In this document: piece after piece, positions 36,034 through 53,719 of the stretch | Layout: the number at the start of each line of letters is the position of its first letter | Position numbering within the stretch: the first letter of the stretch is position 1 | Source: a candidate division WOR-3 bacterium | GTDB lineage: Bacteria; Hydrothermota; Tepidihabitantia; Tepidihabitantales; Tepidihabitantaceae | Reading direction: 5' to 3' | NCBI GenBank assembly: GCA_039801085.1 | Contig: JBDRTY010000001.1 | Coordinates: forward strand, 236,354-300,353 | DNA length: 64,000 nt | Position numbers and translations under genes: made by a program | Notes under the pieces: generated by a model | The model's input: the letters and a program-made list of their open reading frames with translations, nothing else | Databases searched by the model: none | Told to the model about the DNA's origin: nothing

Positions 36034-37200
36034 GTGTCCCCGGCAAAAATTTCCATTACCCGCCGGAAATCGGCACGCGGCCATCTCTGGGTGTTCGCGG
36101 ATGAAATTAAGAGAATTGAAGGGGAGCCGGGTAAAGGTGATCTGGTCCGGGTATATGAGCACGGCAGGCTGGTCGGTTCCGGGATGTTCAATCCCGATTC
36201 GCTGATCCGGGTCCGGCTTTACTCGTTCCGCGATGAGGAGCTGGATGAGGAGCTGCTGGTTCAGCGGCTGACGGCAGCGCATCGGCGGCGCCAGCAGAAA
36301 CTGCCTCAGGAACAGGATTTCCGGCTGGTATTCGGAGAGAGTGATTTTCTGCCCGGACTGGTGATTGACAAATATGGCGATCACTTTGCGGTTCAGGTTT
36401 ATGCTGCGGGGTTTGACCGCCGCATCGAAATGGTGGTCAGTGCGCTGTGCCGGCTGTTTCCGGCAAAGGCGATCTATGAGAAGGATGACATCAAGCTCCG
36501 GGAGCCCGAAGGACTGGAGCGCCGGGAACGGCTGCTATACGGTCAGCCGAATCCGGACCTCATCATCTCGGAGAATGGAGTCCGGTTTTATGTGGACATC
36601 GCCGGCGGGCAGAAGACCGGTTACTTCTTCGACCACCGGCTCACCCGCAGGAAGGTCCGGCGTCTGGCACGAAACCGCCGGGTGCTGGATGTGTTCTGCT
36701 ACACCGGTTCCTTTGCAATTAATGCGGCACTGGGCGGGGCAACCGAGGTGATTGCGGTTGATATTTCGTCCGAAGCCTGCCGCTGGGCAGAGCGGAACGC
36801 CCGCCTGAACGGGGTTGAGGCGCGCTGCCGGTTTGTCACCGCCGATGCCTTTGAATACCTGCAGGAACTTCAGGCGTGCGGTGAGCGGTTTGACCTGATC
36901 AATCTTGACCCGCCCGCATTTATCAAGAGCCAGAAGCAGAAGGTGTCCGGGATCCGGGGCTATGAGAAGATCAACCGGCTGGCACTGGCACTACTGAAAC
37001 CCGGCGGGATTCTGGTCTCTTCATCCTGTTCCCATTATCTGTTCTGGCAGGACCTGCTGGATGTGGTCAGCAATGCCGCCGCCGAACTTAACCGGCAGTT
37101 TGTTATCCTTGACCGTTCCACTCAGGGCCCGGACCATCCGGTTCTGCCGCAGATGCCCGAATCTGAATACCTGCGCTGTCTCATTGTTCAGGTGAATTAG
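36034..37200 (+). CDS. RlmI-family PUA-domain SAM-dependent rRNA m5C methyltransferase
   Basis: GHLWVF, GESDFLPGLVID, GQKTGYFFD, LDVFCYTGSF, LDPPAF, SSCS. Confidence 0.9.
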   Translation: MSPAKISITRRKSARGHLWVFADEIKRIEGEPGKGDLVRVYEHGRLVGSGMFNPDSLIRVRLYSFRDEELDEELLVQRLTAAHRRRQQKLPQEQDFRLVFGESDFLPGLVIDKYGDHFAVQVYAAGFDRRIEMVVSALCRLFPAKAIYEKDDIKLREPEGLERRERLLYGQPNPDLIISENGVRFYVDIAGGQKTGYFFDHRLTRRKVRRLARNRRVLDVFCYTGSFAINAALGGATEVIAVDISSEACRWAERNARLNGVEARCRFVTADAFEYLQELQACGERFDLINLDPPAFIKSQKQKVSGIRGYEKINRLALALLKPGGILVSSSCSHYLFWQDLLDVVSNAAAELNRQFVILDRSTQGPDHPVLPQMPESEYLRCLIVQVN

Positions 37201-37703
37201 ACCTGAAATTTTACCTTTCTGCTGAAGATTGAGTCTGATATCACCAGAAGAGGATCCGGCAGGAAGACACGGGCGACCGGTGGCAGGACACTGCGGGGAG
37301 CCGGGCAGACAGCAGAACCGAAAACCGAGGGCGAGACAGGGGTTGAACTGGGATGCGGAGTTCGGCCTGAACTGAGGCTGGCGTCAGGCTTCTGAGCGAG
37401 CGTCGGGGCAGGACCTGCAGCCGGACCGGGGCTAGCCCCCGGCTACCCCCTCCGAAACAAATTCCGGGTATAACATTGTTTTAAGTGCCAGCCTGATAAT
37501 TACTTAGAGACAGAAGTTAAACGATACATTAACAAGAAGTAGTTATGGAGGTGAAAGGGAAGGGGAGGTGTAAGCAAGAGGCTCGGTTTAACTGTCACCC
37601 GGGTGGTTTGTTTCCGGTTACGGTCCGGCAGTCATGCATCGGGTTAATTATTCCTTAAATTTTCTTGACTTGTAGTCTTGCTGATTTATCATATTTTCTT
37701 AGC

Positions 37704-38096
37704 ATGAGTTCACAGGACAACTCCCAGCTTGTTTCCCAAATTGAAGAGTTGAGCGGTCAGCGTGTCAGTGAGTGTTACCAGTGCGGCTGCTGTACTGCGG
37801 GCTGTCCGGTTGGCGAGCTGATGGATCCGCCACCGAACCGGGCGATCCGGTTGCTGCAGCTCGGCCGGGCGCAGGAGCTTTTGGCAAGTGAAGGGATCTG
37901 GGTGTGTGCCAGCTGTCTTGTGTGCGGGAACCGCTGTCCGCGCAATGTGGATTATGCCAAAATTGCCGAGGCGTGCCGGGCACTGATTCTGCGGGCAAAG
38001 CGGAGCCAGGTTGATCCCGATGTGGTGAATGATCAGGACCTGCAGGATGTGCCGCAGCAGGCGTTTATCGCCAGTTTCCGGAAGTTTTCGGTATGA
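37704..38096 (+). CDS. hdrC: Heterodisulfide reductase subunit C
   Basis: CYQCGCCTAGCP and CASCLVCGNRCP. ATG 37704 preferred; the TTG at 37665 matches a -35 hexamer. Confidence 0.9.
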   Translation: MSSQDNSQLVSQIEELSGQRVSECYQCGCCTAGCPVGELMDPPPNRAIRLLQLGRAQELLASEGIWVCASCLVCGNRCPRNVDYAKIAEACRALILRAKRSQVDPDVVNDQDLQDVPQQAFIASFRKFSV

Positions 38097-38950
38097 AGTA
38101 TCCCTACTATCCGGGCTGTACCCTTTATTCCAAGGCGAGAAATCTGGACCGGTGCGGCCGGCTCGCAGCGGCGCGGGCAGGTTTTGAGCTTGAGGAGCTG
38201 CCTTCCTGGAACTGCTGTGGTGCAATTTACAATACCAATACTGATGATCTGGCAGCTCAGGTCGGACCGGTCCGGGTGCTGGCAAAGGCAAGTCAGCAGG
38301 GCAGACGGCTGGTGACCCTTTGTGCCGCCTGTTACAATGTGCTGAAGCGGGCGAATGAGCGTCTGCATGCCACCGGTTTTGAGCAGGACCGGCAGCGGAT
38401 TCTGGAGTTTGTTGATGAGCCATTTGAACAGGATGTTGAGGTTGTGCATTACCTTGAGGTGCTCAAGGAGCTGGGCTGGGATGCTTTAAGAGCGCGGGTG
38501 GTGCGTTCCCTGAACGGTCTGAAGGTGGCATCCTATTACGGCTGTCTGATGGTGCGGCCCAGGGAGGTGCTGAAGTTTGATGATCCGGAGAATCCGGTGG
38601 TGATGGATCAGCTGATTGCGGCGCTGGGCGGAGAGCCGGTGCGGTTTGATTTCAAGGCGGAGTGCTGTGGCGGGTATCTGGTGGTGAACCGGCGTCCGGT
38701 TGCCGATGCCTGCTCCCTGCGGGTGGTGGAGAACGCCCGGACCTGGGGGGCAGAGGCGCTCGTGACCACCTGTCCGCTCTGTCAGTACAATCTGGAAACC
38801 GCCCAGCTGCGCCGGGAAACAGTACTGACACCGGTTTTTTATTTCACTCAGCTGCTCGGCTTGGCGCTGGGGCTGGAGCCACCGGAGCTGGGTTTTGAGG
38901 ATAACAGGTCGGACCCGGTGCCGTTTCTGAAGGAGAAGGGGCTGTTGTGA
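38093..38950 (+). CDS. hdrB: Heterodisulfide reductase subunit B
   Basis: Two CCG domains: YYPGC/WNCCG/CAAC and YYGC/ECCGG/CPLC. Confidence 0.93.
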   Translation: MKYPYYPGCTLYSKARNLDRCGRLAAARAGFELEELPSWNCCGAIYNTNTDDLAAQVGPVRVLAKASQQGRRLVTLCAACYNVLKRANERLHATGFEQDRQRILEFVDEPFEQDVEVVHYLEVLKELGWDALRARVVRSLNGLKVASYYGCLMVRPREVLKFDDPENPVVMDQLIAALGGEPVRFDFKAECCGGYLVVNRRPVADACSLRVVENARTWGAEALVTTCPLCQYNLETAQLRRETVLTPVFYFTQLLGLALGLEPPELGFEDNRSDPVPFLKEKGLL

Positions 38951-40887
38951 AGCGCCGGATCGGGGTTTTTGTCTGTCACTGCGGGATCAATATTGCGGGG
39001 GTGGTCAGGGTGCCGGAGCTGGTCGAGCGGGCAAAAAATATTCCCGGCGTGGTGACGGCGCTGGATTATGTCTACTGCTGTTCGGATCCGGGGCAGCGGT
39101 TGATCCGGGAGACAATTGAGCGGGAACGGCTGGAGGGGATTGTGGTCGCCTGCTGTTCCCCCAATCTTCATGAGACCACCTTCCGCAAGGCGGCGGCTGA
39201 GGCCGGTCTCAACCCCTATCTCTGTGAGATCGCCAATATCCGGGAGCAGTGCTCCTGGGTGACTTCTGACCGGGATGCTGCCACGGACAAGGCGGAGGGA
39301 ATTGTCCGGACAATGGTGGCGAAGGTGAGTCATGATCAGCCGCTCGTGCGGCTCGGTGTGCCGATTGTCAAGCGGGCGCTGGTGGTCGGAGCAGGCATTG
39401 CCGGCATCCAGGCAGCGCTGGACATCGCCAACGCCGGTTATGAGGTGGTGCTGGTGGAGAAGGAGCCGTCAATCGGCGGACATATGGCGCAGCTTTCTGA
39501 GACCTTTCCGACGCTCGACTGCTCCCAGTGCATTCTGACCCCGAAGACGGTGGAGGCGGGCCGTCATCCGAAAATCCGGCTTCTGACCTATTCCGAGGTT
39601 GCCGAGGTCTCCGGATTTGTCGGCAACTTCCGGGTGAAGATCCGGCAGAAGCCGCGCTATGTTGACCTTGACGCCTGCACCGGCTGCGGTATCTGTCTCG
39701 AGAAGTGTCCGGTGCGGGTGGAGTCGGCGTTTGACCGGAATCTGACCCGGCGCCGGGCGATCTACCGGCTCTTTCCGCAGGCGGTGCCGAACAAGGTGGT
39801 GATTGATGCGGAAAACTGCCGGCAGCTCCAAGGTAAGAAGTGCGGAGTATGTGCCAAGGTCTGTCCGGCGCAGGCGATCCGGTATGATGACCAGGAGCGG
39901 ATTGTCGAGGAGGAGGTGGGAGCGATCGTGCTTGCCACCGGCTATGAGCTTTTTGACAGCCGCCGGCTGGGTGCCTACGGGCTGGGGGTGGTGCCGGATG
40001 TAATTGACAGCCTCGCCTTTGAGCGCATCCTTTCTGCCTCCGGACCTTTTGCCGGTGAGGTGCGCCGGCCTTCGGATGGCAGAGTGCCGAAGCGGGTGGT
40101 TTTTGTCCAGTGTGCCGGTTCCCGGGATTCAAACCAGGGTGTGCCCTACTGTTCGAAGATCTGCTGTATGTACACCGCCAAGCATGCCCTGCTTTACCGG
40201 CACCGGGTCCATGATGGTGAGGCGATTGTCTGCTATATTGATGTCCGGACCCCGGGCAAGGGTTTTGAGGAGTTTTACCGCCGGGCAACGGATGAGGGGG
40301 TCCAGTATCTCCGGGGCAAGGTGTCCAAGATCTTCCGGCGCGGCGACCGGGTGGTGGTCTGGGCAGCCGATACCCTGGCAGGCAAGAAGCTGGAAATTGA
40401 GGCGGATATGGTGGTGCTGGCAAGTGCGGTCGTGCCCAATCCTGAGGGCGTGGCGCTGGCACGCAGGCTGAAAATTCCGGTAGACAGCTGGGGGTTTCTG
40501 TCTGAAGCCCATCCGAAGCTCCGGCCGGTGGAGACGCTGACCGCCGGCTTCTTCCTCTGCGGCTGCGGTCAGGGACCGAAGGACATTCCGGAGACGGTGG
40601 CGCAGGCGTCAGGTGCTGCTGCCAAGGTGCTGGCGATGTTCGGGCAGAGTGAGCTGTATCATGAGCCGGTGACCGCAGTGGTGGATGAGGAGATCTGTGT
40701 CGGGTGCGGGAACTGTGAGCGGACCTGTGCCTATGAGGCGGTCAAGGTTGACCGGCAGCTGGGCAGGGCGGTGGTGCAGGCGGTGATGTGTGAAGGGTGC
40801 GGTGCCTGTTCGGTTGCCTGCCCGGCTGGCGCAATCAACCTGAAGAACTTCACCAAACAGGCGCTGACTGAAATGGTGGATGTATGA
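38947..40887 (+). CDS. hdrA: Heterodisulfide reductase subunit A (canonical length, 646 aa)
   Basis: IGVFVCHCG, GAGIAG, TFPTLDCSQCI, QCAGSRD...CSKICC, EAHPKLRP, GPKDIPETV, inserted and C-terminal ferredoxins. Confidence 0.95.
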   Translation: MKRRIGVFVCHCGINIAGVVRVPELVERAKNIPGVVTALDYVYCCSDPGQRLIRETIERERLEGIVVACCSPNLHETTFRKAAAEAGLNPYLCEIANIREQCSWVTSDRDAATDKAEGIVRTMVAKVSHDQPLVRLGVPIVKRALVVGAGIAGIQAALDIANAGYEVVLVEKEPSIGGHMAQLSETFPTLDCSQCILTPKTVEAGRHPKIRLLTYSEVAEVSGFVGNFRVKIRQKPRYVDLDACTGCGICLEKCPVRVESAFDRNLTRRRAIYRLFPQAVPNKVVIDAENCRQLQGKKCGVCAKVCPAQAIRYDDQERIVEEEVGAIVLATGYELFDSRRLGAYGLGVVPDVIDSLAFERILSASGPFAGEVRRPSDGRVPKRVVFVQCAGSRDSNQGVPYCSKICCMYTAKHALLYRHRVHDGEAIVCYIDVRTPGKGFEEFYRRATDEGVQYLRGKVSKIFRRGDRVVVWAADTLAGKKLEIEADMVVLASAVVPNPEGVALARRLKIPVDSWGFLSEAHPKLRPVETLTAGFFLCGCGQGPKDIPETVAQASGAAAKVLAMFGQSELYHEPVTAVVDEEICVGCGNCERTCAYEAVKVDRQLGRAVVQAVMCEGCGACSVACPAGAINLKNFTKQALTEMVDV

Positions 40888-43800
40888 GCGGTAATGGTGA
40901 TCAGAGACCGATGACCGGTGCGGCGCTGGTGGTCGGCGCGGGAATTGCCGGCATTCAGACAGCCCTTGAGCTGGCTGAGTCCGGTTTCAAGGTCTATCTT
41001 GCCGACTCCTCACCGGCGATCGGCGGGGTGATGGCGATGCTGGACAAGACCTTCCCGACCAATGACTGCTCAATGTGCATTCTGGCACCGAAGCTGGTGG
41101 GTACGGGCCGGCATCCGAATATTGAGCTTTTGAACTGCGCTGAGCTTCTGGAGCTCCGGGGCGAGCCGGGCAACTTTACCGCCCGCATCCGGCAGCGGCC
41201 GCGGTATGTGCTTCTGGACAAGTGCACCGGCTGTCTGGACTGCACCAAGGTTTGTCCGGTCCGGGTTCCCGATGAATACAACCAGCGGCTTTCGGAAAGG
41301 GGTGCGATTTATAAACGTTTTGCCCAGGCGATTCCCAATGCGGTGGCGATTGACAAGGGTGAGCGCCGGGCACCCTGCCGGCTTGCCTGTCCGGCCGGGG
41401 TTAATGCCCAAGCTTATATTGCGCTGACCCGCGCCCGCAAGTTCAAGGAGGGGTATCTCAAGGTCCGGGAAAGGCTGCCGTTTGTTGGCATCTGTGGCCG
41501 GGTGTGCCATCACCCGTGTGAACAGGAGTGTAACCGGCAGCAGGTTGATGGTGAGCCGCCGGTGGCGATCAGGACGATCAAGCGGTTTCTTGCCGACTAT
41601 GCGGCGGCTCAGGGCGGTGTGCCCTATCCCGCACCGGCAGCGGAGCGGGAGGAGCGGATTGCGGTCATCGGTGCCGGACCGGCAGGACTGACCTGCGCGC
41701 TGGATCTACGGCTTAAGGGTTATCAGGTCACCGTTTTTGAGGCTGCGGACCAGCCCGGTGGTATGATGCGCTGGGGAATTCCTGCCTACCGTCTGCCGCG
41801 GAATGTGCTCGATCAGGAGATTAAGGATATCCTTGATACTGGAATTGAGCTGAAGCTGAATACACCGGTCAGAACAACCGCGGAACTGCAGGAGTTACGC
41901 AATCAGGGCTACCGGGCGGTTTTCGTTGCCCTTGGTGCCCAGCGCAGCCGGACGCTGAACATTCCGGGTATGGAGCTTGAGGGGGTTTTGCACGGAATTG
42001 AGTTTCTGCGCCAGGTTAACCGGGGTGAGGTGCCGGCGGTGGGCAGACGGGTGGTGGTTATCGGCGGTGGTAATGTCGCAGTCGATGTGGCGATGTGTGC
42101 CCGGCGCGCCGGTGCTGAGGAAGTAACGATGGTATGTCTGGAGCAGCGGGAGGAGATGCCGGCGCACGAATGGGAGATTGAGGAGGCGCTGGCTGAGGGC
42201 ATCAAGATCATGCCGGGCTGGGGTCCGGCAGCGATCCGGGGAGAAAACGGCAGCGTCAAGGGTCTGGAAACGGTAGAATGCGTCCGGGTGTTTGATGAAC
42301 AGCGCCGGTTCAATCCGGCGTTCAACCCGGAGCATACCGGATTTGTGTCCGCAGATACGGTAATTCTGGCAATCGGACAGCAGGTGGCGGCTGAAGGGTT
42401 TGAAGGTATTGAACGGGGAGCGGGAGGAACATTCAGGGTTGATCCGGTGACGCTGGAGGTCAGCGGGCTGGAAGGTGTTTTTGCCGGTGGCGATCTGGTG
42501 AGCGGACCGGCATCAGTAATTGAGGCAGTCCAGGCAGGGCATGAGGCGGCGATTTCTATTGACCGTTTTATCCGGGGGGAGGATCTGCGTGCAGGCAGAC
42601 CGGAGCCGAAGCCGGAGAAGGCAGGGCTTGAGGATTCTGCCGGATATCGGACCGGAATCAGAAAACAGCCCCGGACCGGGGAACCGGTTCTGCCGCCTGG
42701 TGAACGCAGTGGTGAGCAGGAGATTAACCTTGGTTTCTCTGAGGAACAGGCGGTCCTTGAGGCACAGCGGTGTCTGGACTGCGGAGTGTGCTGCGAGTGT
42801 CTGCAGTGTGTTGCCGCCTGTGAAGCGGGGGCAATTGATCACCTCCAGCAGGTGCAGGAACGGGAGCTGCAGATCGGGGCGGTGATTCTTGCCGGCGGGT
42901 TCACCGAGCACAAGCCGGTTGCTGATGTCAGTCTGGGATATGGCCGGCACCCGAACATTATCACCAGTCTGGAGTTTGAGCGGATCCTTTCCGCCACCGG
43001 TCCTTATGAGGGACATGTGCGCCGGCCTGGAGACCGGACTCAGCCGAAAAAGATTGCCTGGGTGCAGTGTGTCGGCTCAAGAAATCAGGAGCATTATTAC
43101 TGTTCTTCGGTCTGCTGCATGTTCGCAACCAAGGAGGCGGTGATTGCCAAGGAGCACTGCCTCGGTGATCTGGAGTGCCATATCTACTACATGGACATGC
43201 GCTGCTTCGGCAAGGGGTTTGAGCGCTATTACGAACGGGCGGAGAAGGAGTACGGGGTGGTCTTCCGCCGGTCAAGGGTGAGTGCCATCCGTGCTGTGCC
43301 CGATTCCGGTGATCTGATTATCTCCTATGAGGATGATCAGGGTCAGCTTCATGATGAGGTTTACAACCTGGTGGTGCTCTCCAGCGCGCTCGTGCCCAGC
43401 CCGGAGATGAAAAGCCTCTGCGAACGGCTCGGGGTCAAGACCGATGAACAGGGTTTTGTCCGGACCGAGACCTACTATCCGGTGGCGACGAGCCGGAGCG
43501 GGGTTTTTGCCTGCGGGGTGCTGACCGAGCCCAAGGACATTCCGGAAACGGTCACCGAGGCGACCGGCTGTGCCGGTGCGGTTGCCGGGCTGCTCAGTTC
43601 CGCCCGGAATACGCTGGTGAGCAAGAAGAGTTATCCCGCAGAGCGGGATGTCAGCCTGGAGGAGCCGAGAATCGGGGTTTTTGTCTGTAACTGCGGGATC
43701 AATATCGGCGGGGTGGTGCGGGTGCCAGAGGTGGTGGAGTATGCGCAGAATCTGCCTGGTGTGGTGCATGCGGAGGAAAATCTGTTTACCTGTTCGCAGG

Positions 43801-45329
43801 ACACCCAGGAGAAGATCAAGCGGGTGATCCAGGAACAGCGGTTGAACCGGGTGGTGGTGGCATCCTGTACCCCCAGAACCCATGAACCGCTGTTTCAGGA
43901 GACGCTGGCAGAAGCCGGACTCAACCGGTATCTTTTCACGATGGCAAACATCCGGGATCAGTGTTCCTGGGTGCATATGCATCTGCCCGCTGAGGCAACT
44001 GCAAAGGCAAAGGAGCTGGTGCGGATGGCGGTTGCCAATGCCCGCCGACTCAAGCCGCTGGGCTCTTCCTCCCAGAAGGTCATTCAGCGGGCGCTGGTCA
44101 TTGGCGGTGGTGTTGCCGGTATGACCGCGGCAATGTCAATTGCCGAGCAGGGGTTTGAGGTTTATCTGGTGGAACGGGAAAAGGAGCTGGGTGGTAATCT
44201 GCGCCGGTTACGCTACGATGAGGCCGGTAATCAGACCGCCGAGCTTGCGAGCCGGCTGGAGCGTCAGGTCCGTTCCCACCCCCGAATCCGGGTGCTGACC
44301 GGAGTCGAGATTACCGGGGTTAACGGTTACATCGGTAACTACCGGACAGCGGTGCGGCCGGTGGCAAGTTCTGATGCTGGTGAAGAAATTCTGGAGCACG
44401 GGGTCTATGTTGTGGCGGTAGGGGCAAATGAATATGTGCCCAGGGAGTATTTCTACCGCGAGGACGAGCGGGTCAAGACTCAGCTGGAGCTGGAGGCTTT
44501 GCTGGAGCAGGGGACTGATTTCAATTCGCAGACAGTTGTGATGATTCAGTGTGTCGGTTCCAGAAACAGCGAGCATCCCTGGTGTTCCCGGGTCTGCTGT
44601 ACTGAGGCAGTCAAGAATGCGCTGGCGATCCGGCGGCGCTATCCGCAGTCGCGGGTTTACATCTTCTACCGGGATATGCGGACCTACGGTTTCCGGGAGG
44701 CGTTGTACCGTGAAGCTCGGCGTGCCGGCGTTGTTTTCATTCATTACGAGCCTGATGATCTGAAGGTGGAGAAGCGGGATGGCAGAATTGTTGTCTCCAG
44801 CTATGATCCGGTGCTGGCACAGCGGATTGCAGCTGCTGCTGACTGGCTGGTGCTTTCAACCGGAGTTGTGCCCGCACCGGTGAACTCCCAGCTGGCAAAG
44901 ATGCTCAAGGTGCCGTTAAATGAGGATGGATTCTTCCTTGAAGCCCATATGAAGCTCCGGCCGGTGGACTTCAACACCGCCGGCATCTTCATGGCCGGAA
45001 TGTGTCACAGTCCGCGTTTTATTTCCGAAACCATCGCTCAGGCGCTGGCAGCAGCGGCGCGTGCCGGTTCAGTGATCAGTCAGGACACTATTACCACATC
45101 GGCGGTGGTTGCCCGGGTTAATACCCGCTGGTGTGCGGGCTGCGGAATCTGTGAGCAGGTTTGCCAGTACGAGGCGGCACGGCTCAATCCCGAAACCGGG
45201 AAATCGGAGGTGACTCCTGTGCTCTGTCAGGGCTGCGGGGCGTGTGCAGCTGCCTGTCCATCAAATGCAATTGAACTTCAGGGGTTTGAATCAAAGCAGC
45301 TGCTGGCAATGATTGAGGAGGCGCTGTGA
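40884..45329 (+). CDS. HdrL-like protein: double HdrA module with an inserted GltD/NfnB-type FAD/NAD(P) oxidoreductase
   Basis: Two HdrA FAD modules (QCVGSRN twice); insert with CPAGVN...CGRVCHHPCE, GAGPAG, GGGNVA, GGDLVSGP, EAQRCLDC. Confidence 0.88.
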   Translation: MSGNGDQRPMTGAALVVGAGIAGIQTALELAESGFKVYLADSSPAIGGVMAMLDKTFPTNDCSMCILAPKLVGTGRHPNIELLNCAELLELRGEPGNFTARIRQRPRYVLLDKCTGCLDCTKVCPVRVPDEYNQRLSERGAIYKRFAQAIPNAVAIDKGERRAPCRLACPAGVNAQAYIALTRARKFKEGYLKVRERLPFVGICGRVCHHPCEQECNRQQVDGEPPVAIRTIKRFLADYAAAQGGVPYPAPAAEREERIAVIGAGPAGLTCALDLRLKGYQVTVFEAADQPGGMMRWGIPAYRLPRNVLDQEIKDILDTGIELKLNTPVRTTAELQELRNQGYRAVFVALGAQRSRTLNIPGMELEGVLHGIEFLRQVNRGEVPAVGRRVVVIGGGNVAVDVAMCARRAGAEEVTMVCLEQREEMPAHEWEIEEALAEGIKIMPGWGPAAIRGENGSVKGLETVECVRVFDEQRRFNPAFNPEHTGFVSADTVILAIGQQVAAEGFEGIERGAGGTFRVDPVTLEVSGLEGVFAGGDLVSGPASVIEAVQAGHEAAISIDRFIRGEDLRAGRPEPKPEKAGLEDSAGYRTGIRKQPRTGEPVLPPGERSGEQEINLGFSEEQAVLEAQRCLDCGVCCECLQCVAACEAGAIDHLQQVQERELQIGAVILAGGFTEHKPVADVSLGYGRHPNIITSLEFERILSATGPYEGHVRRPGDRTQPKKIAWVQCVGSRNQEHYYCSSVCCMFATKEAVIAKEHCLGDLECHIYYMDMRCFGKGFERYYERAEKEYGVVFRRSRVSAIRAVPDSGDLIISYEDDQGQLHDEVYNLVVLSSALVPSPEMKSLCERLGVKTDEQGFVRTETYYPVATSRSGVFACGVLTEPKDIPETVTEATGCAGAVAGLLSSARNTLVSKKSYPAERDVSLEEPRIGVFVCNCGINIGGVVRVPEVVEYAQNLPGVVHAEENLFTCSQDTQEKIKRVIQEQRLNRVVVASCTPRTHEPLFQETLAEAGLNRYLFTMANIRDQCSWVHMHLPAEATAKAKELVRMAVANARRLKPLGSSSQKVIQRALVIGGGVAGMTAAMSIAEQGFEVYLVEREKELGGNLRRLRYDEAGNQTAELASRLERQVRSHPRIRVLTGVEITGVNGYIGNYRTAVRPVASSDAGEEILEHGVYVVAVGANEYVPREYFYREDERVKTQLELEALLEQGTDFNSQTVVMIQCVGSRNSEHPWCSRVCCTEAVKNALAIRRRYPQSRVYIFYRDMRTYGFREALYREARRAGVVFIHYEPDDLKVEKRDGRIVVSSYDPVLAQRIAAAADWLVLSTGVVPAPVNSQLAKMLKVPLNEDGFFLEAHMKLRPVDFNTAGIFMAGMCHSPRFISETIAQALAAAARAGSVISQDTITTSAVVARVNTRWCAGCGICEQVCQYEAARLNPETGKSEVTPVLCQGCGACAAACPSNAIELQGFESKQLLAMIEEAL

Positions 45330-45363
45330 AAGGCAAATATTGGTGCGCGGCAGGAGGTGACAG

Positions 45364-45783
45364 ATGAGCTTTGAACCCAAGATCGTCGGTTTTCTCTGTA
45401 ACTGGTGCACCTATGCGGGTGCGGATCTGGCAGGAACTTCACGGCTCCAGTATCCGCCGAATATGCGGCCGATCCGGGTGATGTGTTCCGGGGCAGTGGA
45501 CTCGGTTTACATCCTCCGGGCACTGCTGGAAGGGGCAGATGGGGTCTTCATCGGCGGTTGTCATCCGGGTGACTGCCACTATGTTTCCGGTAACTACAAG
45601 ACCAGGCGCCGGATGGTGCTGTTCAATTCAATCATGCGGGCACTCGGGCTGGATGAGGGGCGGGTGCTGTTGCGCTGGATATCTGCTGCTGAGGGCAAGA
45701 AATTTGCTGATACGGTAACGGAGATGACCGAGCGGTTGCGTCAGCTCGGTCCCAGTCCGTTCCGGAAGCTGTGGGAGGTGTGA
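45364..45783 (+). CDS. mvhD: MvhD/FlxD [2Fe-2S] subunit
   Basis: FLCNWCTYAGADLAG, VMCSG, GCHPGDCHY; all ligands are Cys (no UGA). Confidence 0.93.
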   Translation: MSFEPKIVGFLCNWCTYAGADLAGTSRLQYPPNMRPIRVMCSGAVDSVYILRALLEGADGVFIGGCHPGDCHYVSGNYKTRRRMVLFNSIMRALGLDEGRVLLRWISAAEGKKFADTVTEMTERLRQLGPSPFRKLWEV

Positions 45784-45784
45784 T

Positions 45785-46924
45785 TTGGGCAAGATCGGTC
45801 TGCTGCCAGTAAAAGACAACCGTCCGGTTCAGACGCTGCGTGAACTTTTTGTCCGCTGGCTGGAATCGGGTCATGTGTCTGCCCTGCTGGTGCCGGCGGT
45901 TTCCCCGGCCGGGGTGGTGGCGCCGGTGCTCTGGTCTGATCCGGAAAAAGCATTACAGATTTATCCGCTTTTGCCGGTGATGGGAATTAACAGTGCTGGT
46001 GTGGTGGCAGAGATTGCCGCGGATAAGGCGGAAGGCAGCCGGCTGGGAGTGGTATTAAGACCCTGTGAGATGCGGGCGGTGGTGGAGCTGATTAAGCTTC
46101 AGCAGATTGCCCGGGACAATCTGGTTCTGATCGGCGTGGACTGTGCAGGAACATACAAGCCGACCACCTTGGGATCTGAGCTTAAAAATGATGCGGGGGA
46201 ACTTGAGAACTGGATTACCGGGTTTCTGACCGCTCAGGACCGGTATCTGAAGGATGAGCGGTTACGCCGTGCCTGCCAGCTGTGTGAATTTCCAGTTCCG
46301 CTCGTTTATGATGTGGCGCTCGGCTTTCTCGGGGTCAATCCGAAGGAGCAGCTGCTGATTCAGTCTGCCAGTGAGCTGGGAGATATGCTGCTGACCGAAG
46401 TGAACATTTCGCCAGTCGCAGCAGTGCCGGCAGAGAGGCAAACGTATCTCGACCATTTCATTTCCAAGCGTCAGGAGCAGGCAGTCCGGGCGATTGCCGA
46501 TTTTGACCGGGCTGCTCTTGGTCCGGAAAATCTGGTGCGCTATTTTGCCTCCTGCATCAACTGCCATAACTGCATGAAGGTGTGTCCGGTCTGTTACTGC
46601 CGGGAATGTTTCTTTGACTCGGAGGTTCTGAAGCGGGACCTGGATGGTTATATCCGGGTGTCCCGGCGTAAGGGGCTGAACCGGATGCCGGCAGACACAC
46701 TGCTGTTTCATCTGACCAGAATGAACCACATGATGACCTCCTGTGTCCAGTGTGGCATCTGTGAGGATTCCTGTCCAGCCGGGATCGGTTTAAGCGTCAT
46801 GTTCAAGAAGGTTTCCCGGGAGGCGCAGGCAGCATTTGAATATCTATCCGGTCGCTCGCTTGAGGAGCCGTTGCCGCTGACCACCTTCCGTGAGGATGAG
46901 TTCCGGCAGATCGGGGAGGATTAG
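45785..46924 (+). CDS. FdhB/FrhB-family (FlxC-like) Fe-S flavoprotein subunit
   Basis: RPCEMRA, IGVDCAG, CINCHNCMKVCPVCYCREC, CVQCGICEDSCP. Confidence 0.8.
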   Translation: MGKIGLLPVKDNRPVQTLRELFVRWLESGHVSALLVPAVSPAGVVAPVLWSDPEKALQIYPLLPVMGINSAGVVAEIAADKAEGSRLGVVLRPCEMRAVVELIKLQQIARDNLVLIGVDCAGTYKPTTLGSELKNDAGELENWITGFLTAQDRYLKDERLRRACQLCEFPVPLVYDVALGFLGVNPKEQLLIQSASELGDMLLTEVNISPVAAVPAERQTYLDHFISKRQEQAVRAIADFDRAALGPENLVRYFASCINCHNCMKVCPVCYCRECFFDSEVLKRDLDGYIRVSRRKGLNRMPADTLLFHLTRMNHMMTSCVQCGICEDSCPAGIGLSVMFKKVSREAQAAFEYLSGRSLEEPLPLTTFREDEFRQIGED

Positions 46925-46926
46925 TC

Positions 46927-47598
46927 ATGGCAGAACTGCTCCTGAACGAACTGGATGCCAGTTTCAAGCACCGGATTGCAGAACGGATGGGCGATGACAG
47001 TTTTCTCAACTGTTTTGCCTGCGGTTCCTGCACCGCTTCCTGTCCGGTGCGCCGGCTGGAGGAGAAATACAATCCCCGCCGGCTGATCAGGATGGCGATT
47101 CTGGGAATGAAGGAGGAGGTTTACCGCTCGGAATTCCTCTGGCTCTGTTCCTATCACTCTACCTGCCATTATCGCTGTCCGCAGAAGGTGAATATCGGAG
47201 CAGTCTGCGATGCGGTGGTGCGGATCCGGCAGGAGCGGGACGAAAATCACTGGCCGGCAGGTCCTACCCGTGAATTTCGCCAGCGGGTGCTGCGGGAGGT
47301 TTCCGGCGTGAGCGCCTGTTTTGTCTGCGGAACCTGCACCGCGGTCTGTCCCGAAAGTTTTCTTGATCCTTCGCGGGATCCAAGAAAGTTCATCCGCAAG
47401 GTTAATCTCGGTCTGGCACAGGCGGCACTGGCCGATGAGTTCAAGGATATCTGCGCCACCCATTTACGGTGTGAGAGCCGCTGTCCGCAGGGGGTGAAGA
47501 TCAGCCGGGTGATGCAGGCACTGCGCGAGCTGGCGCTGGAAGACGGTTTTTCCTGTCCAGAATCGTTAAACTTTCTGAAAAATCAGACAGATGACTGA
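46927..47598 (+). CDS. Tandem (double) HdrC-like ferredoxin
   Basis: Two HdrC repeats: CFACGSCTASCP/CSYHSTCHYRCP and CFVCGTCTAVCP/CATHLRCESRCP. Confidence 0.85.
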   Translation: MAELLLNELDASFKHRIAERMGDDSFLNCFACGSCTASCPVRRLEEKYNPRRLIRMAILGMKEEVYRSEFLWLCSYHSTCHYRCPQKVNIGAVCDAVVRIRQERDENHWPAGPTREFRQRVLREVSGVSACFVCGTCTAVCPESFLDPSRDPRKFIRKVNLGLAQAALADEFKDICATHLRCESRCPQGVKISRVMQALRELALEDGFSCPESLNFLKNQTDD

Positions 47599-50500
47599 GC
47601 CGAAATTTTCGGACCGGGTGTTAGTTATCGGTGGCGGGATCGGCGGTGTTCAGGCAGCGCTTGATCTCGCCGATACCGGCAGAAAGGTTTACTTGGTGGA
47701 AAGTGCGCCGGCGATTGGTGGCTATATGGCGATGCTGGATAAAACTTTTCCCACTAACGACTGTTCGATGTGCATTCTCAGCCCGAAGCTGGTCAGTTGT
47801 GCCCGGCATCCGAATGTGGAACTGATGACACTGAGCCGGCTCGTGGCACTCAGCGGTGAGCCGGGCAGGTTTCGGATACGGATACTTCGCCATGCCCGCT
47901 CGGTGGACCTTTCCCGGTGCACCGGCTGTGGTGACTGTCTGGAGAAGTGTCCGGTCAAAGTACCGAATGAGTTTGAGGGCGGTCTGGCACAACGCCGAGC
48001 AATCTACCGGCTCTATGCCCAGGCGGTACCCAATGCACCGGTGATTGACCGCCGCTTCTGTCTCAAATTCACCAAGGACCGCTGTGGCAACTGTGCCCGG
48101 GTGTGCAAGGCCGGGGCGATTGATTACCGCCAGCAGGATGAGGAGATTGAACTGGAAGTCGGTGCGGTGATCAATGCAAGCGGCAGTGTGATTGCTGATC
48201 CGCAACTCCGGCAGGAGTTCGGACACCGGCGCCTCGCCAATGTAGTTACCGCACTGGAGTTTGAGCGTATTCTTTCCGCCTCAGGTCCTTATTCCGGGCA
48301 TGTCCTCCGTCCTGGTGATGGTAAGGAGCCGAAACGCATCGCCTGGGTTCAGTGTTTCGGTTCCAGGGATGAGTCAATTGATCACGGTTACTGTTCGTCG
48401 GTCTGCTGCATGTATGCGGTCAAGGAGGCGGTGATCGCCCGCGAGCACAATCCGGCGATTGAACCGACGGTTTTCTATATGGACATCCGGGCTTACGGCA
48501 AGGAGTTTGACCGCTATATTGAACGGGCACAGAAGCAGTACGGGGTGAGGTTCGTCCAGGCGCGGGTGGCGGAAATTCTTGAGCAGAAGGAGAGCGGGAG
48601 TCTGATTGTCCGCTACGCTGATACCGGGGGTCAGCGTTCTGAGCTGTTTGATCTGGTAGTGCTGTCCTGCGGGCTCAGTGCCCGGGAGTTTGCTGGTATG
48701 ACGGTAGAAAGGGATAGTGCCGGATTTCCTGTGACCAGGTTGACCGAGCCGGTCAGTAGTTCCAGCGCCGGGGTATTTCTGGCCGGCAGCTGTGCGGCGC
48801 CGGTGGCGATCCCCGAGACGGTGATGGCAGCATCAGCAGCAGCGCTGAAGGCGATGACGCTGACCGTTCCGGCGGCGAAAGCCGTATCTGAAGAGCAGAG
48901 TGGTTTTGAACTTGATGTTGCCGGTGCTCCACCCCGAATCGGTGTTTTTGTCTGCAACTGCGGGATTAATATCGGCGGGGTGGTGCGGGTGCCGGAGGTG
49001 GTGGAGTATGCTCGGACACTGCCCGGAGTGGTTTATGCCGAAGAAAATCTCTATTCCTGTTCGGCGGATACGCTGGAGAAGCTCAAGCAGAGGGTCAGGG
49101 AGTATAACCTGAACCGGGTGGTGGTGGCATCCTGTTCCCCCCGGACGCACGAACCGCTGTTCCAGCAGACACTGGCTGAAGCAGGATTGAATCCGCATCT
49201 GTTTGCGATGGCAAACATCCGGGACCAGTGTTCTTGGGTGCATCCGGACCGGGATAGGGCAACAGAAAAGGCAAAGGATCTGGTCAAGATGGCGGTCGCC
49301 AGAGTACGCCGGCAGCTACCGCTCAAACCGGTGAAACTGCCGGTTACTAGGGCGGCACTGGTCGTCGGCGGCGGTATCAGTGGTATGGCGGCAGCGCTGG
49401 CGCTTGCTGACACCGGGGTTGATGTTTGTTTGGTGGAACGGGAGCCGGTTCTTGGGGGCATGGCAAGAAGAATTTACGAGACCATTGAAGGCGAGGACGT
49501 CCAACGGCTTCTGGCAGAAATGGAGGAACGAGTGAGGTCGCATCCCCGGATCCGGATTTTTACCGGAGCGGAAATCAGGCGCGTCAATGGCTTTGTTGGT
49601 TCATTTGAAACTACGGTTGCAGTTGCGGGCAGAGAGGAGATAGTGCGTCACGGGGTTGTGATTGTTGCCACCGGTGCTCAATACCGTCAGCCTGACGAAT
49701 ATCTTTATGGACAGGATCCGAGAATCCGGACCCAGCAGGAGCTGGAGGAGATTATTGCCCGCCAGCCTGAGGAGCTGAAGCGATTGGATAAGGTCGTGAT
49801 GATTCAGTGTGTTGGTTCGCGGGAGGGGAAACATAACTATTGTTCCCGGGTGTGCTGTACGGAGGCGGTCAAGAATGCGCTGGCAATCAAGCGCATTAAT
49901 CCGGATTGCGATATATACATTCTTTACCGGGATATCCGTACTTACGGTATACTGGAGCGGTATTACCGCCAGGCACGGGAGGCAGGGGTGATATTTGTCC
50001 GCTATGAGGAGACGGATAAACCTCGGGTGAAAGTGTCTGACGGAAAACTGCAGGTTGAGCTGCTCGAACCCGTACTGAAGATGCCCCTGACACTGCAACC
50101 GGATTGGTTGATTCTTTCCAGTGGAGTAACGCCTTATTCTGATGCCTCAATACTGGGACAGTTGCTGAAGGTACCGTTGCAGCAGGACGGATTTTTCCTT
50201 GAGGCGCATGCCAAGCTCCGGCCCGTGGATTTTGCCACTGATGGGGTATTTGTTGCCGGAATGTGCCATTATCCCAAGTTCATCCCCGAGGCGGTGGCAT
50301 CGGCACAGGCGGCTGCCGGCAGGGCGGCAACCGTTCTCGCCCGGGAGTATATTGAGGCTGAACCCTATCAGGCGGTGGTTAATCCGGAGCGCTGCTCTGC
50401 CTGCGGGATGTGTGAAAAACTGTGTGCCTATCGGGCAATTGAAGTGCAGGTGATTGATGAGCGTTCCGGCAGGCGGGCAGCAGTTGTCAATCAGGCGATG

Positions 50501-50614
50501 TGCAAGGGCTGTGGTGCCTGTGCCGCCAATTGCCGGTCGGCGGCAATTGATATCCGGGGTTTTGTTGCCGAAAACATCAGTCGCGAGCTTGCCGCACTTT
50601 TTGCTGAAGATTAA
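47591..50614 (+). CDS. Double-module HdrA paralogue (1007 aa)
   Basis: GGGIGG, TFPTNDCSMCI, QCFGSRD, IGVFVCNCG, QCVGSRE, EAHAKLRP, C-terminal ferredoxin. Confidence 0.9.
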   Translation: MTEPKFSDRVLVIGGGIGGVQAALDLADTGRKVYLVESAPAIGGYMAMLDKTFPTNDCSMCILSPKLVSCARHPNVELMTLSRLVALSGEPGRFRIRILRHARSVDLSRCTGCGDCLEKCPVKVPNEFEGGLAQRRAIYRLYAQAVPNAPVIDRRFCLKFTKDRCGNCARVCKAGAIDYRQQDEEIELEVGAVINASGSVIADPQLRQEFGHRRLANVVTALEFERILSASGPYSGHVLRPGDGKEPKRIAWVQCFGSRDESIDHGYCSSVCCMYAVKEAVIAREHNPAIEPTVFYMDIRAYGKEFDRYIERAQKQYGVRFVQARVAEILEQKESGSLIVRYADTGGQRSELFDLVVLSCGLSAREFAGMTVERDSAGFPVTRLTEPVSSSSAGVFLAGSCAAPVAIPETVMAASAAALKAMTLTVPAAKAVSEEQSGFELDVAGAPPRIGVFVCNCGINIGGVVRVPEVVEYARTLPGVVYAEENLYSCSADTLEKLKQRVREYNLNRVVVASCSPRTHEPLFQQTLAEAGLNPHLFAMANIRDQCSWVHPDRDRATEKAKDLVKMAVARVRRQLPLKPVKLPVTRAALVVGGGISGMAAALALADTGVDVCLVEREPVLGGMARRIYETIEGEDVQRLLAEMEERVRSHPRIRIFTGAEIRRVNGFVGSFETTVAVAGREEIVRHGVVIVATGAQYRQPDEYLYGQDPRIRTQQELEEIIARQPEELKRLDKVVMIQCVGSREGKHNYCSRVCCTEAVKNALAIKRINPDCDIYILYRDIRTYGILERYYRQAREAGVIFVRYEETDKPRVKVSDGKLQVELLEPVLKMPLTLQPDWLILSSGVTPYSDASILGQLLKVPLQQDGFFLEAHAKLRPVDFATDGVFVAGMCHYPKFIPEAVASAQAAAGRAATVLAREYIEAEPYQAVVNPERCSACGMCEKLCAYRAIEVQVIDERSGRRAAVVNQAMCKGCGACAANCRSAAIDIRGFVAENISRELAALFAED

Positions 50615-50638: not shown

Positions 50639-51073
50639 ATGAATTCTGATTCTCTCCCTTACCGACTTCTCGACCATACAGCGGATTTAAAAGTGGAAAT
50701 ATACGGGCAGGAGTTGAAGGAACTGTTTTGCAACGCTGCCTTCATGATTTTTGATGTCATGCTGGATTTGAAACAGGTGCGTGAACAGGGGAACTATGAA
50801 ATATCGCTGCAATCGGCAGACCTGCCTGAACTCTTTCTGGACTGGCTCCGCGAACTGCTTTTCCTTTTTTCAACCCGCAGTTTTGTCACCAGACGGGTTG
50901 AAATTTCGGCATTGCAGAGCGAACCTGCGCTGCTGAAAGCAGTAGTCTACGGCGAAAGTTATGACCCGGACCGGCACGGATTGAAAATTGAGATTAAAAC
51001 GCCTACCTATCATCAGTATCAGATTGAACGGATGCAGGAGGGCTATCGGGCAACCGTAATCTTTGATGTATAG
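50639..51073 (+). CDS. Archease family protein
   Basis: LDHTAD N-terminal motif, IKTPTYH C-terminal motif, ATVIFDV end. Confidence 0.9.
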   Translation: MNSDSLPYRLLDHTADLKVEIYGQELKELFCNAAFMIFDVMLDLKQVREQGNYEISLQSADLPELFLDWLRELLFLFSTRSFVTRRVEISALQSEPALLKAVVYGESYDPDRHGLKIEIKTPTYHQYQIERMQEGYRATVIFDV

Positions 51074-52246: not shown

Positions 52247-52769
52247 TTTTTTGCTCCTTCTTTTTTCTCGATTTTAATCCTCCGATGAATTCATAAAGTA
52301 GGATCAGGATTACGCCGGTTACTACAAAGGCATCCGCCAGATTAAATGTAAACCAGCGGAATCCGAGTGAACGGATTTCAAAGTCAATGAAATCGATGAC
52401 ATGACCCAGCCGTACCCGGTCCACGAGATTACCCAACGCACCGCCCAGAATAATGCCATAGGCACAGCCGAGATAGGTGCTACGGGTCTTTAATGCCAGC
52501 AGCAGTACCAATATAATCCCGGTGAGCTGCAACAGGTAATGGAGCCAGACCGCGCCGAATGATATCCCGAATACCCCGAAGGGGTTGGTATTATAGGAAA
52601 TTTTAAGCAGATCACCTATTATCCGGATTGAAACGGGTGCTGCCGGCCTGTTGAAAATCCCGTAGACAAGATTTTTTGTTATCTGGTCAGCAAACAAAGC
52701 CAGAATGCTGGTCCAGACAAAAGAACGACCCAGCACCGGTGTGCAGCGGACGGGTTCTGAATTGGACAT
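52161..52769 (-). CDS. lspA: Lipoprotein signal peptidase (signal peptidase II)
   Basis: DQITK, GGALGNLVDR, VIDFID, FNLAD; the C-terminal tail overlaps iscS by 86 nt. Confidence 0.92.
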   Translation of the reverse strand: MSNSEPVRCTPVLGRSFVWTSILALFADQITKNLVYGIFNRPAAPVSIRIIGDLLKISYNTNPFGVFGISFGAVWLHYLLQLTGIILVLLLALKTRSTYLGCAYGIILGGALGNLVDRVRLGHVIDFIDFEIRSLGFRWFTFNLADAFVVTGVILILLYEFIGGLKSRKKKEQKNENACLSGQQLNHPDRSAGQGSNCTLPD

Positions 52770-53719
52770 CAGGATGTCTTTTCTGCGGCAGCAATAAGCT
52801 GGTCGAGCTGATCAGGGGGATAAACTCGGATATGATAGTGCTGGGCAAACTGTTGTGCTTCGGGGCTTAATGCGGTCCCGGCGATCAGAATAATATCCTG
52901 CGCACCGACATCATATGCCTTGGCATAAAGCTTTATTACTTCCTCGGCCGGTATTTCGGTCGCCCCGGCGGCAAATCCGATAACGACTTGGTGTTCCAGC
53001 GGACCGGATCGCTTGACCGCGAGAATGTCAATCAAATGTCTTGCTCCAGACCGGCCCGATACAGTAACCGCTTCCCGAACATCATACCCTTCCTGAGTTA
53101 GCAGGTTCTTTACCCGGCTCCGGGGTATCCTTTCCTCCTGTATCTTTTTCAACTGTTCAGGATTAACACAATATTTATAGAGCACAAGTTCGCGTACACC
53201 ATTTTTTTCATACAGCTGACTGCATCCGCTGCAGTGCCAGCGTTCTACCGGGGACCGGGTTAATTCGCGGCAGTGAGGGCACCGGTACCGGTAACCCAGA
53301 TCTTCATAATCACTGCCCAGCAGCAGCAATTCATCACGGCATTTCGGACAGACCCTCCGGTTATAGCGAAGAAAATCATCCGCCGGTCCGGAATAACCGC
53401 AAGTTCGATGTTTTAATACTCTGGTGCGAAGAATTTCCGGAGAGTGGCACTTGGGACAGAAAAAAACAAGCTTCAGCCGATCGGCATTACATCGTGGACA
53501 AAGAAATATTCTTTCCGCGAACTGGCGTTCCAAATATCCGAGCCGGGAGAGATCCTCGAGAAGCTGGACCGCAGCTTGAGCATCGATTTTCAGGTGTGAT
53601 TCTACGAGTGGATAGCTGATGCCCTCAGGGGTATGAGGAGCAAAGACCGGTTCCAGCGATCGGTCCGGTTTTTCTGTCAGCAGTTCAAAAAGTTTCAGCA
53701 GGTTGCTGTCAGTTTCCAT
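52769..53719 (-). CDS. Multi-zinc-ribbon (TackOD1-like) protein with C-terminal Mrr-like restriction-endonuclease fold
   Basis: CPRC, CPKC, HxxC, CPKC, CPHC, CSGC; C-terminal GRSGARHLIDILA...VIKLYAKAYDVG...ALSPEAQQFA. Confidence 0.6.
   Translation of the reverse strand: METDSNLLKLFELLTEKPDRSLEPVFAPHTPEGISYPLVESHLKIDAQAAVQLLEDLSRLGYLERQFAERIFLCPRCNADRLKLVFFCPKCHSPEILRTRVLKHRTCGYSGPADDFLRYNRRVCPKCRDELLLLGSDYEDLGYRYRCPHCRELTRSPVERWHCSGCSQLYEKNGVRELVLYKYCVNPEQLKKIQEERIPRSRVKNLLTQEGYDVREAVTVSGRSGARHLIDILAVKRSGPLEHQVVIGFAAGATEIPAEEVIKLYAKAYDVGAQDIILIAGTALSPEAQQFAQHYHIRVYPPDQLDQLIAAAEKTS

Follow-up and report, generated by a model that had tools for sequence, protein, structure and literature searches.

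The eight-gene operon and its flanks

The window analysed here is a stretch of 64,000 nucleotides (nt) from a genome (1.91 Mb, 7 contigs, 96.8% complete) whose nearest relatives place the host in candidate division WOR-3. Our subject is an operon of heterodisulfide reductase (Hdr) genes within this window. According to the map of open reading frames (ORFs), eight ORFs, all on the plus strand, span positions 37704-50614 and encode, in this order, hdrC, hdrB, a canonical hdrA, hdrL, mvhD, an fdhB/elpB-like gene, a double hdrC and a double hdrA. Subunit identities were assigned with Pfam and NCBIfam profiles. Four junctions are overlaps (4, 4, 4 and 8 nt) and the other three are gaps of 34, 1 and 2 nt, i.e., the tight packing read earlier from the letters alone (overlaps or at most about 35 nt) is confirmed, with all eight ORFs at their places.

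hdrC (37704..38096) encodes 130 amino acids (aa) with two [4Fe-4S] clusters (Fer4_8/Fer4_17; TIGR03290 HdrC, E 1.6e-16). It is followed by hdrB (38093..38950; 285 aa), which has two CCG domains (PF02754 matched twice). Over its entire length, HdrB can be aligned with HdrB chains of known structure (9sfi_C, E 5e-36; 5odc_B). None of the ten cysteines that hold the two non-cubane clusters is missing, and each half has the C, CC and CxxC motifs. Further downstream, mvhD (45364..45783) encodes a [2Fe-2S] connector of 139 aa (PF02662 (FlpD), E 6e-54) and is better conserved than any other gene of the cluster (87-100% in relatives). The adjoining fdhB/elpB-like gene (45785..46924) encodes an Fe-S protein of 379 aa and presumed flavoprotein (FrhB_FdhB_C and 4Fe-4S domains in Pfam). 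Its sequence matches in the PDB are FdhB chains of Hdr complexes, namely 9t1s_M (1e-28), 8rvu_E and 7bkb_E, with E-values ranging from 1e-28 to 9e-22. An AlphaFold model based on 32 homologues reached a predicted local distance difference test (pLDDT) score of 85.9 and a predicted template modelling score (pTM) of 0.87, and a Foldseek search with this model gave template modelling (TM) scores of 0.71 to 7bkb_E and 0.70 to 8rvu_E. The protein has 15 invariant cysteines, and the FdhB cysteine pattern is visible in the sequence alignment. Judged by sequence and model together, it is a true FdhB/ElpB homologue. The double hdrC (46927..47598; 223 aa) consists of two HdrC-like stretches (TIGR03290, E 1.6e-35) with 16 cysteines and four predicted [4Fe-4S] clusters, and has no HdrB partner adjoining it.

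The remaining three genes encode HdrA-type proteins, whose modules were aligned to the solved methanogen HdrA (5ODC chain A); residue numbers of HdrA modules refer to this alignment. The canonical, i.e., type I, hdrA (38947..40887; 646 aa) matches 5odc_A over residues 3-637 (E 4e-201). It comprises the N-terminal cluster, the thioredoxin-reductase-like flavin, the inserted ferredoxin and the C-terminal ferredoxin domain and retains all cluster cysteines as well as C194/C197, E356 and K409. In contrast, hdrL (40884..45329; 1481 aa) is a GltD/NfnB and HdrA fusion according to its Pfam/NCBIfam and PDB matches and its cysteine table. Its first HdrA module has neither the N-terminal nor the C-terminal domain. 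C194/C197 are retained in it, and a GltD/NfnB-like module interrupts its inserted ferredoxin domain. The second HdrA module has the N-terminal and the C-terminal ferredoxin domains and lacks C197 and the inserted ferredoxin domain. The GltD/NfnB-like module, predicted to bind flavin adenine dinucleotide (FAD) and NAD(P)H, covers about residues 158-624 of the protein (41355..42755 of the window; Pfam and PDB matches). Pfam places Fer4_20 at 162-243 and Pyr_redox_2 at 258-552 (E 1e-58), and residues 149-642 match NfnB, GltD and DPD in a sequence search of the PDB. The module thereby shows two [4Fe-4S] motifs along with two Rossmann folds, one for FAD and one for NAD(P).

The type II double hdrA (47591..50614; 1007 aa) matches 5odc_A in three stretches (E 2e-203) and has the same complementary two-module layout as HdrL, minus the GltD insert. 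That is, HdrL and the double HdrA each carry one N-terminal cluster domain, one Cys197, one inserted and one C-terminal ferredoxin domain, and two flavin modules. By its domain content, each large fusion is built like an intramolecular 'heterodimer', i.e., a pseudo-dimer. Such complementary domain loss is known from archaeal tandem or fused HdrAs, where it has been read as a sign of an obligate heterodimer (PMC9012536). Both proteins show the hallmarks of type II HdrA, i.e., the complementary N-terminal domain and Cys197 as well as E356 and K409 in both modules; the latter two are residues tied to the bifurcating flavin (PMC12054007). The five HdrA flavin modules counted in the sequence-only reading are borne out (1+2+2), with GxGxxG, the cysteines 386/399/403/404 beside the flavin domain and E356/K409 retained in all of them, and the pyridine-nucleotide-linked GltD-like module of HdrL provides a sixth flavin site.

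The top match of a promoter scan (10/12) is a promoter-like site, TTGACT-16-TATCAT, at 37665..37692 on the plus strand. Since it ends 11 nt before the ATG of hdrC, it implies that the hdrC mRNA would have a very short leader or none. A longer ORF starting with TTG at 37665 was dropped, as this TTG is part of the -35 hexamer of the same site; the ATG at 37704, chosen already without this information, is therefore kept as the preferred start. The flanks are unrelated housekeeping genes: upstream, genes for a 5'-nucleotidase, a DHH phosphoesterase and an RNA methyltransferase, the latter with a terminator-like hairpin 3' of it at 37187-37207; downstream, an archease gene and then a class-V aminotransferase gene on the opposite strand. 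The archease gene (50639-51073) begins 25 nt past the last hdr gene with no terminator-like site in between and, given this spacing, may belong to the same transcript as the operon; its annotated neighbours include no gene for an RtcB ligase. Farther downstream, the minus-strand frame at 52769-53719 encodes a fusion of a TackOD1 (thaumarchaeal output) domain with a restriction-endonuclease domain of the Mrr type.

A Moorella-type core with added parts

The metF locus of Moorella thermoacetica DSM 21394 reads hdrC-hdrB-1489-aa ORF-mvhD-metV-metF. As in the window, hdrC and hdrB lie upstream and mvhD directly downstream of an HdrL-type hdrA. The identity of the window proteins to Moorella HdrC, HdrB, the large ORF and MvhD is 40, 36, 50 and 45%, respectively; for HdrL this amounts to 50.4% over 1462 aligned columns, i.e., over the full length. 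The Moorella locus is the gene set of the purified MetFV-HdrABC-MvhD complex (Mock et al. 2014), so that an HdrL-type protein is already part of a characterised enzyme. This complex oxidises NADH, the NADH site is on its HdrA, and this HdrA binds two FAD (PMC5861303; PMC8515935). It is the sole HdrL-type enzyme purified, and its second acceptor was never identified. There are also clear differences. Neither the window operon nor the host genome has metV/metF, and the methyl branch of the Wood-Ljungdahl pathway is probably not in operation in this organism. Moreover, a canonical hdrA is inserted between hdrB and hdrL, and the FdhB-like gene, the double hdrC and the double hdrA are added.

We also compared the nucleotide site of the GltD-like modules. 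Where strand beta-2 of the NAD(P) fold ends, HdrL of the window reads VCLEQREEMPA and the Moorella protein ACLESQEEMPA, while the same site reads VYRR in HdrL of Desulfoscipio and in a second GltD-like protein of the host. That is, the 'CLE' motif is common to window HdrL and Moorella, whereas the other aligned GltD-type modules carry 'YRR'. As a rule, an acidic residue here is typical of proteins that bind NADH, and Arg-Arg of those that bind NADPH. Given the 'CLE' site and the full-length homology to the NADH-dependent Moorella HdrA, the window HdrL probably uses NADH. The link to NAD(P)H via HdrL, which had been proposed from the sequence before, is thus supported.

The same proposal had taken the pyridine-nucleotide module for the only evident electron input. 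This part does not hold, since MvhD and the FdhB-like protein are homologues of ElpC/ElpB (FdhB-MvhD), the donor arm of methanogen Hdr. In Elp-Hdr, ElpB (FAD and four [4Fe-4S] clusters) and the MvhD homologue ElpC form the electron-input arm, which uses F420H2, as established by cryo-electron microscopy and enzyme assay (PMC12350162).

To place the operon among other HdrL loci, the neighbours of HdrL in the fetched loci were clustered, recurrent families were annotated, and counts were taken over the 92 loci with full-length HdrL. Relatives of HdrL are encoded on more than 594 stretches of the species-representative genome collection, distributed over many bacterial phyla as well as Asgard, Bathyarchaeia and Thermoplasmata archaea, and full-length HdrL is found in hundreds of genomes. 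MvhD is next to HdrL in nearly all loci (86/92), and MetV and/or MetF are near it in 57/92. FdhB-like proteins (33/92), FlxA-like flavoproteins (26/92), Fer4_22 proteins (25/92) and double HdrAs (22/92) are less frequent, and a NiFe small plus large subunit is found near HdrL in 13/92 loci. Since the acceptor module in most HdrL loci is thus MetFV, the presence of HdrB is no proof of a disulfide substrate. Firmicutes of the Desulfotomaculum type (e.g., Desulfoscipio geothermicus, L099 1-12443; also L098, L102 and L111) have a larger supercluster composed of a double hdrA, a split mvhD, fdhB-like, Fer4_22, FlxA-like, hdrCC, hdrL, mvhD, metV and metF. It holds most parts of the window operon plus MetFV, and its HdrL has the 'YRR' site, i.e., the NADPH type by the usual rule.

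We consider it about an even bet that the window operon encodes a soluble, multi-flavin, NADH-linked bifurcating Hdr system on a Moorella-type HdrC-HdrB-HdrL-MvhD core. Judging by domain content, this core is extended by four parts, namely a canonical HdrA and an ElpB/FdhB-like subunit as well as two doubled proteins, a four-cluster HdrC and a type II HdrA. A different and less probable, yet still quite possible, situation is that a single transcript serves several machines, i.e., two or three separate complexes that share regulation only (e.g., HdrABC with MvhD/FdhB-like; HdrL alone; double HdrC with double HdrA). The parts indeed occur apart elsewhere. Using AA for double hdrA, CC for double hdrC, F for fdhB-like and L for hdrL, we find hdrC-hdrB-hdrL-mvhD in Moorella, C-B-L-D-AA-D in Desulfobacterota, and AA-mvhD-F-Fer4_22-FlxA-like as well as CC-L-mvhD-metVF in the Desulfotomaculum-type Firmicutes. 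In addition, each fused HdrA is already a complete pseudo-dimer, and only one mvhD is available for three HdrA cores. With parts that recur as separable modules across taxa and with this ratio, the 'self-contained megacomplex' of the sequence-only reading is unproven.

Conservation speaks against such a split. The eight-gene order is identical in a sister genus (G041), with 55-87% identity per protein, and in the metagenome-assembled genome (MAG) L003, so that the cluster is no chance arrangement; the tight coupling (overlaps of 4-8 nt) is kept between genera as well. G041 is the sister genus that was examined in full, and the central genes are kept in five other relatives. AA, F, CC and L likewise stay together in the superclusters of the Firmicutes, and Hdr enzymes of methanogens do form megadalton assemblies (PMC12350162). 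The gene for HdrL itself is present in 4/4 genomes of the host genus and in nearly all of the family, with a patchy distribution elsewhere in the phylum.

Partners in the host genome and its family

The usual partners of Hdr complexes were searched for in the host genome. There is no genome-wide match to MetF (methylene-tetrahydrofolate reductase, PF02219), which is missing from 27 of the 31 family genomes, too. Also absent from the genome are DsrC, [FeFe] hydrogenase, CofH (FO synthase), any match to the molybdopterin catalytic domain PF00384, and a cytoplasmic NiFe large subunit, for which tblastn with the MvhA of a relative finds only a group-4 subunit (25% identity). The hdr cluster contains neither an FlxA-type flavoprotein nor FlxBC, with the FlxA-like/Fer4_22 pair adjoining the group-4 hydrogenase instead, and neither an FdhA nor a truncated ElpA partner, while a degenerate 531-aa FdhA-like protein is encoded in the group-4 hydrogenase cluster. 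The absence of a hydrogenase or formate dehydrogenase (Fdh) catalytic subunit, as first stated, therefore holds for the cluster, and the genome search likewise yields no MvhAG, catalytic FdhA, adjacent FlxAB or DsrC; elsewhere in the genome, however, genes for a group-4 membrane NiFe hydrogenase and for the degenerate FdhA-like protein are present.

Since FO synthase is missing, the redox partner of the MvhD/FdhB-like arm should not be F420. An F420_ligase (CofE-like) match was rejected as evidence for F420, as it is weak, partial and isolated between murJ and mscL. The respective gene (genome C2:259913-260602; L096 7914-8603) is probably a non-F420 member of its family.

A cytoplasmic NiFe large subunit (490-520 aa) is encoded in roughly half of the genera of the family, but not in the host genus and three others. 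In G041 we observe a bare mvhG/mvhA-like pair (contig C9; L094 5011-7454) with intact NiFe motifs and neither mvhD nor hdr genes beside it, the eight-gene operon being on another contig. Such a pair without an mvhD of its own implies the use of the operon's MvhD. The simplest reading is thus that this MvhD can also serve an Mvh-type hydrogenase where one is present, and that the host lineage works without one. Independence of hydrogenase consequently holds for the host genus and a few others and is no property of the operon as such, given the unlinked mvhG-mvhA of about half of those sister genera for which NiFe data are available.

One may ask whether the host enzyme is H2-driven after all, with MvhAG encoded in the unassembled ~3% of the genome and docking on MvhD as in MvhADG-HdrABC. 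Besides the bare pairs of the sister genera, a published WOR-3 survey, which gives mvhADG and hdrABC in 34 MAGs (PMC12542636), points in this direction. Nevertheless, we regard this option as hardly credible: the mvhG-mvhA-like pair is missing from all four genomes of the host genus and from three other genera, and the tblastn search of a genome that is 96.8% complete on 7 contigs returned the group-4 subunit only. A clean syntenic deletion of mvhGA is not shown, since the genes that flank the pair in the relative are scattered in the host genome.

Ferredoxin producers and consumers are present in the host, as the genome encodes RnfD, the group-4 hydrogenase and a 2-oxoacid:ferredoxin oxidoreductase. 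The group-4 membrane NiFe hydrogenase cluster (genome C2:310018-321081; L002 3519-14582) has intact L1 (RICGICSNSH) and L2 (DPCYCCTER) motifs, and the same cluster order is found in two sister genera. The hydrogenase genes are preceded by those for a Fer4_22 protein, an FlxA-like NAD(P)-binding flavoprotein, the degenerate 531-aa FdhA-like protein and a HycB-like protein. The best PDB match of the FdhA-like protein is FdhA of an Hdr complex; it has no PF00384 match, and no Cys/Sec-His motif is seen in it. Based on this gene content, the cluster may encode an NAD(P)H- or Hdr-linked, H2-evolving complex.

A further question is whether HdrB acts on a disulfide at all. In the alternative case, HdrBC would be a relay or reduce a non-thiol, and the system would perform NADH:ferredoxin balancing (Nfn-like or confurcating) together with the group-4 hydrogenase and Rnf. 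The Moorella enzyme provides a precedent, since its substrate is methylene-tetrahydrofolate on MetF although HdrBC is present (PMC5861303). No thiol carrier was found in the host either, and the best NCBIfam match of HdrB is the quinol-reactive SdhE type, albeit with 157 bits versus a cut-off of 500. We nevertheless judge a role of HdrB without disulfide to be rather unlikely. All ten non-cubane-cluster cysteines are kept, HdrB aligns end to end with methanogen HdrB, and a bifurcating enzyme needs a high-potential acceptor. Furthermore, MetF is found neither in the host genome nor in 27/31 genomes of the family.

A second Hdr locus of the host (genome C1:618147-626674; L087 4148-12675) fits the 'HdrAL/POR' cluster type. 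It encodes alpha, beta and gamma subunits of a 2-oxoacid:ferredoxin oxidoreductase, a GltD/NfnB-like protein of 617 aa, whose 'YRR' motif would by the above rule indicate NADPH, a 528-aa MvhD-HdrC-HdrB fusion and an HdrA-MvhD fusion. The latter has an in-frame TGA exactly at the Cys197 position and is therefore probably a selenoprotein; a tRNA-Sec is encoded on contig C2 (complement 365760-365854).

Electron route, known relatives and meaning for the family

From the cofactor sites and homologies observed, we infer the following route, direction and acceptor for the NADH-linked bifurcating system. NADH would be oxidised at the GltD-like flavin of HdrL, from where the electrons would pass via the two [4Fe-4S] clusters of this module to the split inserted-ferredoxin domain and then reach the HdrA-type flavins. 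There, electron pairs would be split by flavin-based bifurcation. The high-potential electron would take the path via HdrC and the two non-cubane clusters of HdrB to an acceptor, most simply a disulfide. The exit of the low-potential electron would be the inserted-ferredoxin domains that are free, in either HdrA or the double HdrA, and the ferredoxin reduced there could supply the Rnf complex and the group-4 hydrogenase of the host. MvhD and the FdhB-like protein would form a second entry or exit arm for a further redox partner.

Several observations weigh against this route. The inserted ferredoxin domain is the low-potential exit in canonical HdrA (PMC12350162, PMC12054007). Since the GltD module sits in this very domain, NAD(H) could be the product instead of the donor. 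Energetically, the reduction of ferredoxin plus a disulfide of about -140 mV by NADH is close to thermoneutral. One mvhD for three HdrA cores gives no evident subunit stoichiometry. The homology to the Moorella enzyme backs NADH oxidation, not the reduction of a disulfide or of ferredoxin. Finally, no candidate thiol carrier was found, i.e., neither DsrC nor a TusA-like motif; the scan of the genome for the latter (G..CP.P) returned spurious frames only and is a weak negative. To our knowledge, CoM-S-S-CoB is not to be expected as a substrate in a WOR-3 bacterium.

A more far-reaching extension of the bifurcating system would turn the three HdrA cores into a membrane-docking cascade. Here, the FdhB-like protein would pair with the degenerate FdhA-like protein of the group-4 cluster to yield a soluble-to-membrane Hdr-hydrogenase super-assembly, which would drive uphill H2 formation from NADH and pay for it by reducing a putative WOR-3 thiol/disulfide cofactor. 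In other phyla, Fer4_22 and FlxA-like proteins, the usual neighbours of the degenerate FdhA-like subunit, do adjoin the FdhB-like gene in hdr clusters. If true, bacteria would have an equivalent of the Hdr-Fmd super-assemblies of methanogens; we consider this a long shot.

Each of the known relatives shares some features with the operon. HdrL was named in 2009, with HdrL1-3 described in Desulfobacterium autotrophicum (PMC2702500). In Syntrophobacter fumaroxidans, the proteome contained products of an hdrABC/FdhB-like/mvhD/hdrL cluster (Sfum_0819-0824), which was discussed as confurcating (PMC5947623). The latter resembles the window operon in combining hdrABC, an FdhB-like Fe-S protein, mvhD and hdrL without any hydrogenase or Fdh catalytic subunit, and has been proposed as NADH-linked bifurcating or confurcating. 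In contrast to both of these hosts, which are sulfate reducers with DsrC as the proposed disulfide, the WOR-3 host has no DsrC, and the double hdrC and the type II hdrA are extra in the window. With the ElpABC-HdrABC and FdhAB-MvhD-HdrABC complexes of methanogens (8RVU, 7BKB), the operon shares a canonical HdrABC, the MvhD/ElpC connector and the FdhB/ElpB-like fold (TM 0.70-0.71), whereas the cluster has neither an ElpA nor an FdhA gene and the genome no FO synthase gene. In comparison to MvhADG-HdrABC (5ODC), the canonical HdrA, HdrB, HdrC and MvhD are present with all cofactor ligands, while MvhA/MvhG are absent from the host genome and unlinked in some sister genera. Type II/III HdrAs were classified in 2025 (PMC12054007), and HdrA-NfnB fusions are known from anaerobic methanotrophic archaea (ANME; PMC9012536). 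These archaeal proteins have the same double flavin modules, GltD/NfnB insert in the inserted ferredoxin domain and complementary N-terminal domain/Cys197, and occur in multi-hdrA clusters as well. Unlike the ANME fusions, the window operon has a bacterial host, a reversed module order, and all three HdrA types in one operon with HdrBC.

The core of the operon was known already (HdrL named in 2009, an HdrL-type protein in the enzyme purified in 2014). No new principle is involved either, as each part and the general idea are in the literature. New, as far as gene content tells, is the combination of three HdrA types, an ElpB-like subunit and HdrBC in one conserved operon of a host that lacks the known partners.

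HdrL-type clusters are among the commonest uncharacterised energy-metabolism modules of anaerobes. The WOR-3 family has their core without MetFV, DsrC, Fdh and F420, and Mvh is missing as well from roughly half of its genera. The locus sharpens the question of the acceptor, although it overturns nothing, and an answer would extend to hundreds of genomes. With their small size, the genomes of this family offer a well-defined natural system in which to ask what HdrBC reduces when the host is neither a methanogen nor a sulfate reducer, and in which to test whether NADH-driven ferredoxin reduction helps fermenters to shed reducing power as H2.

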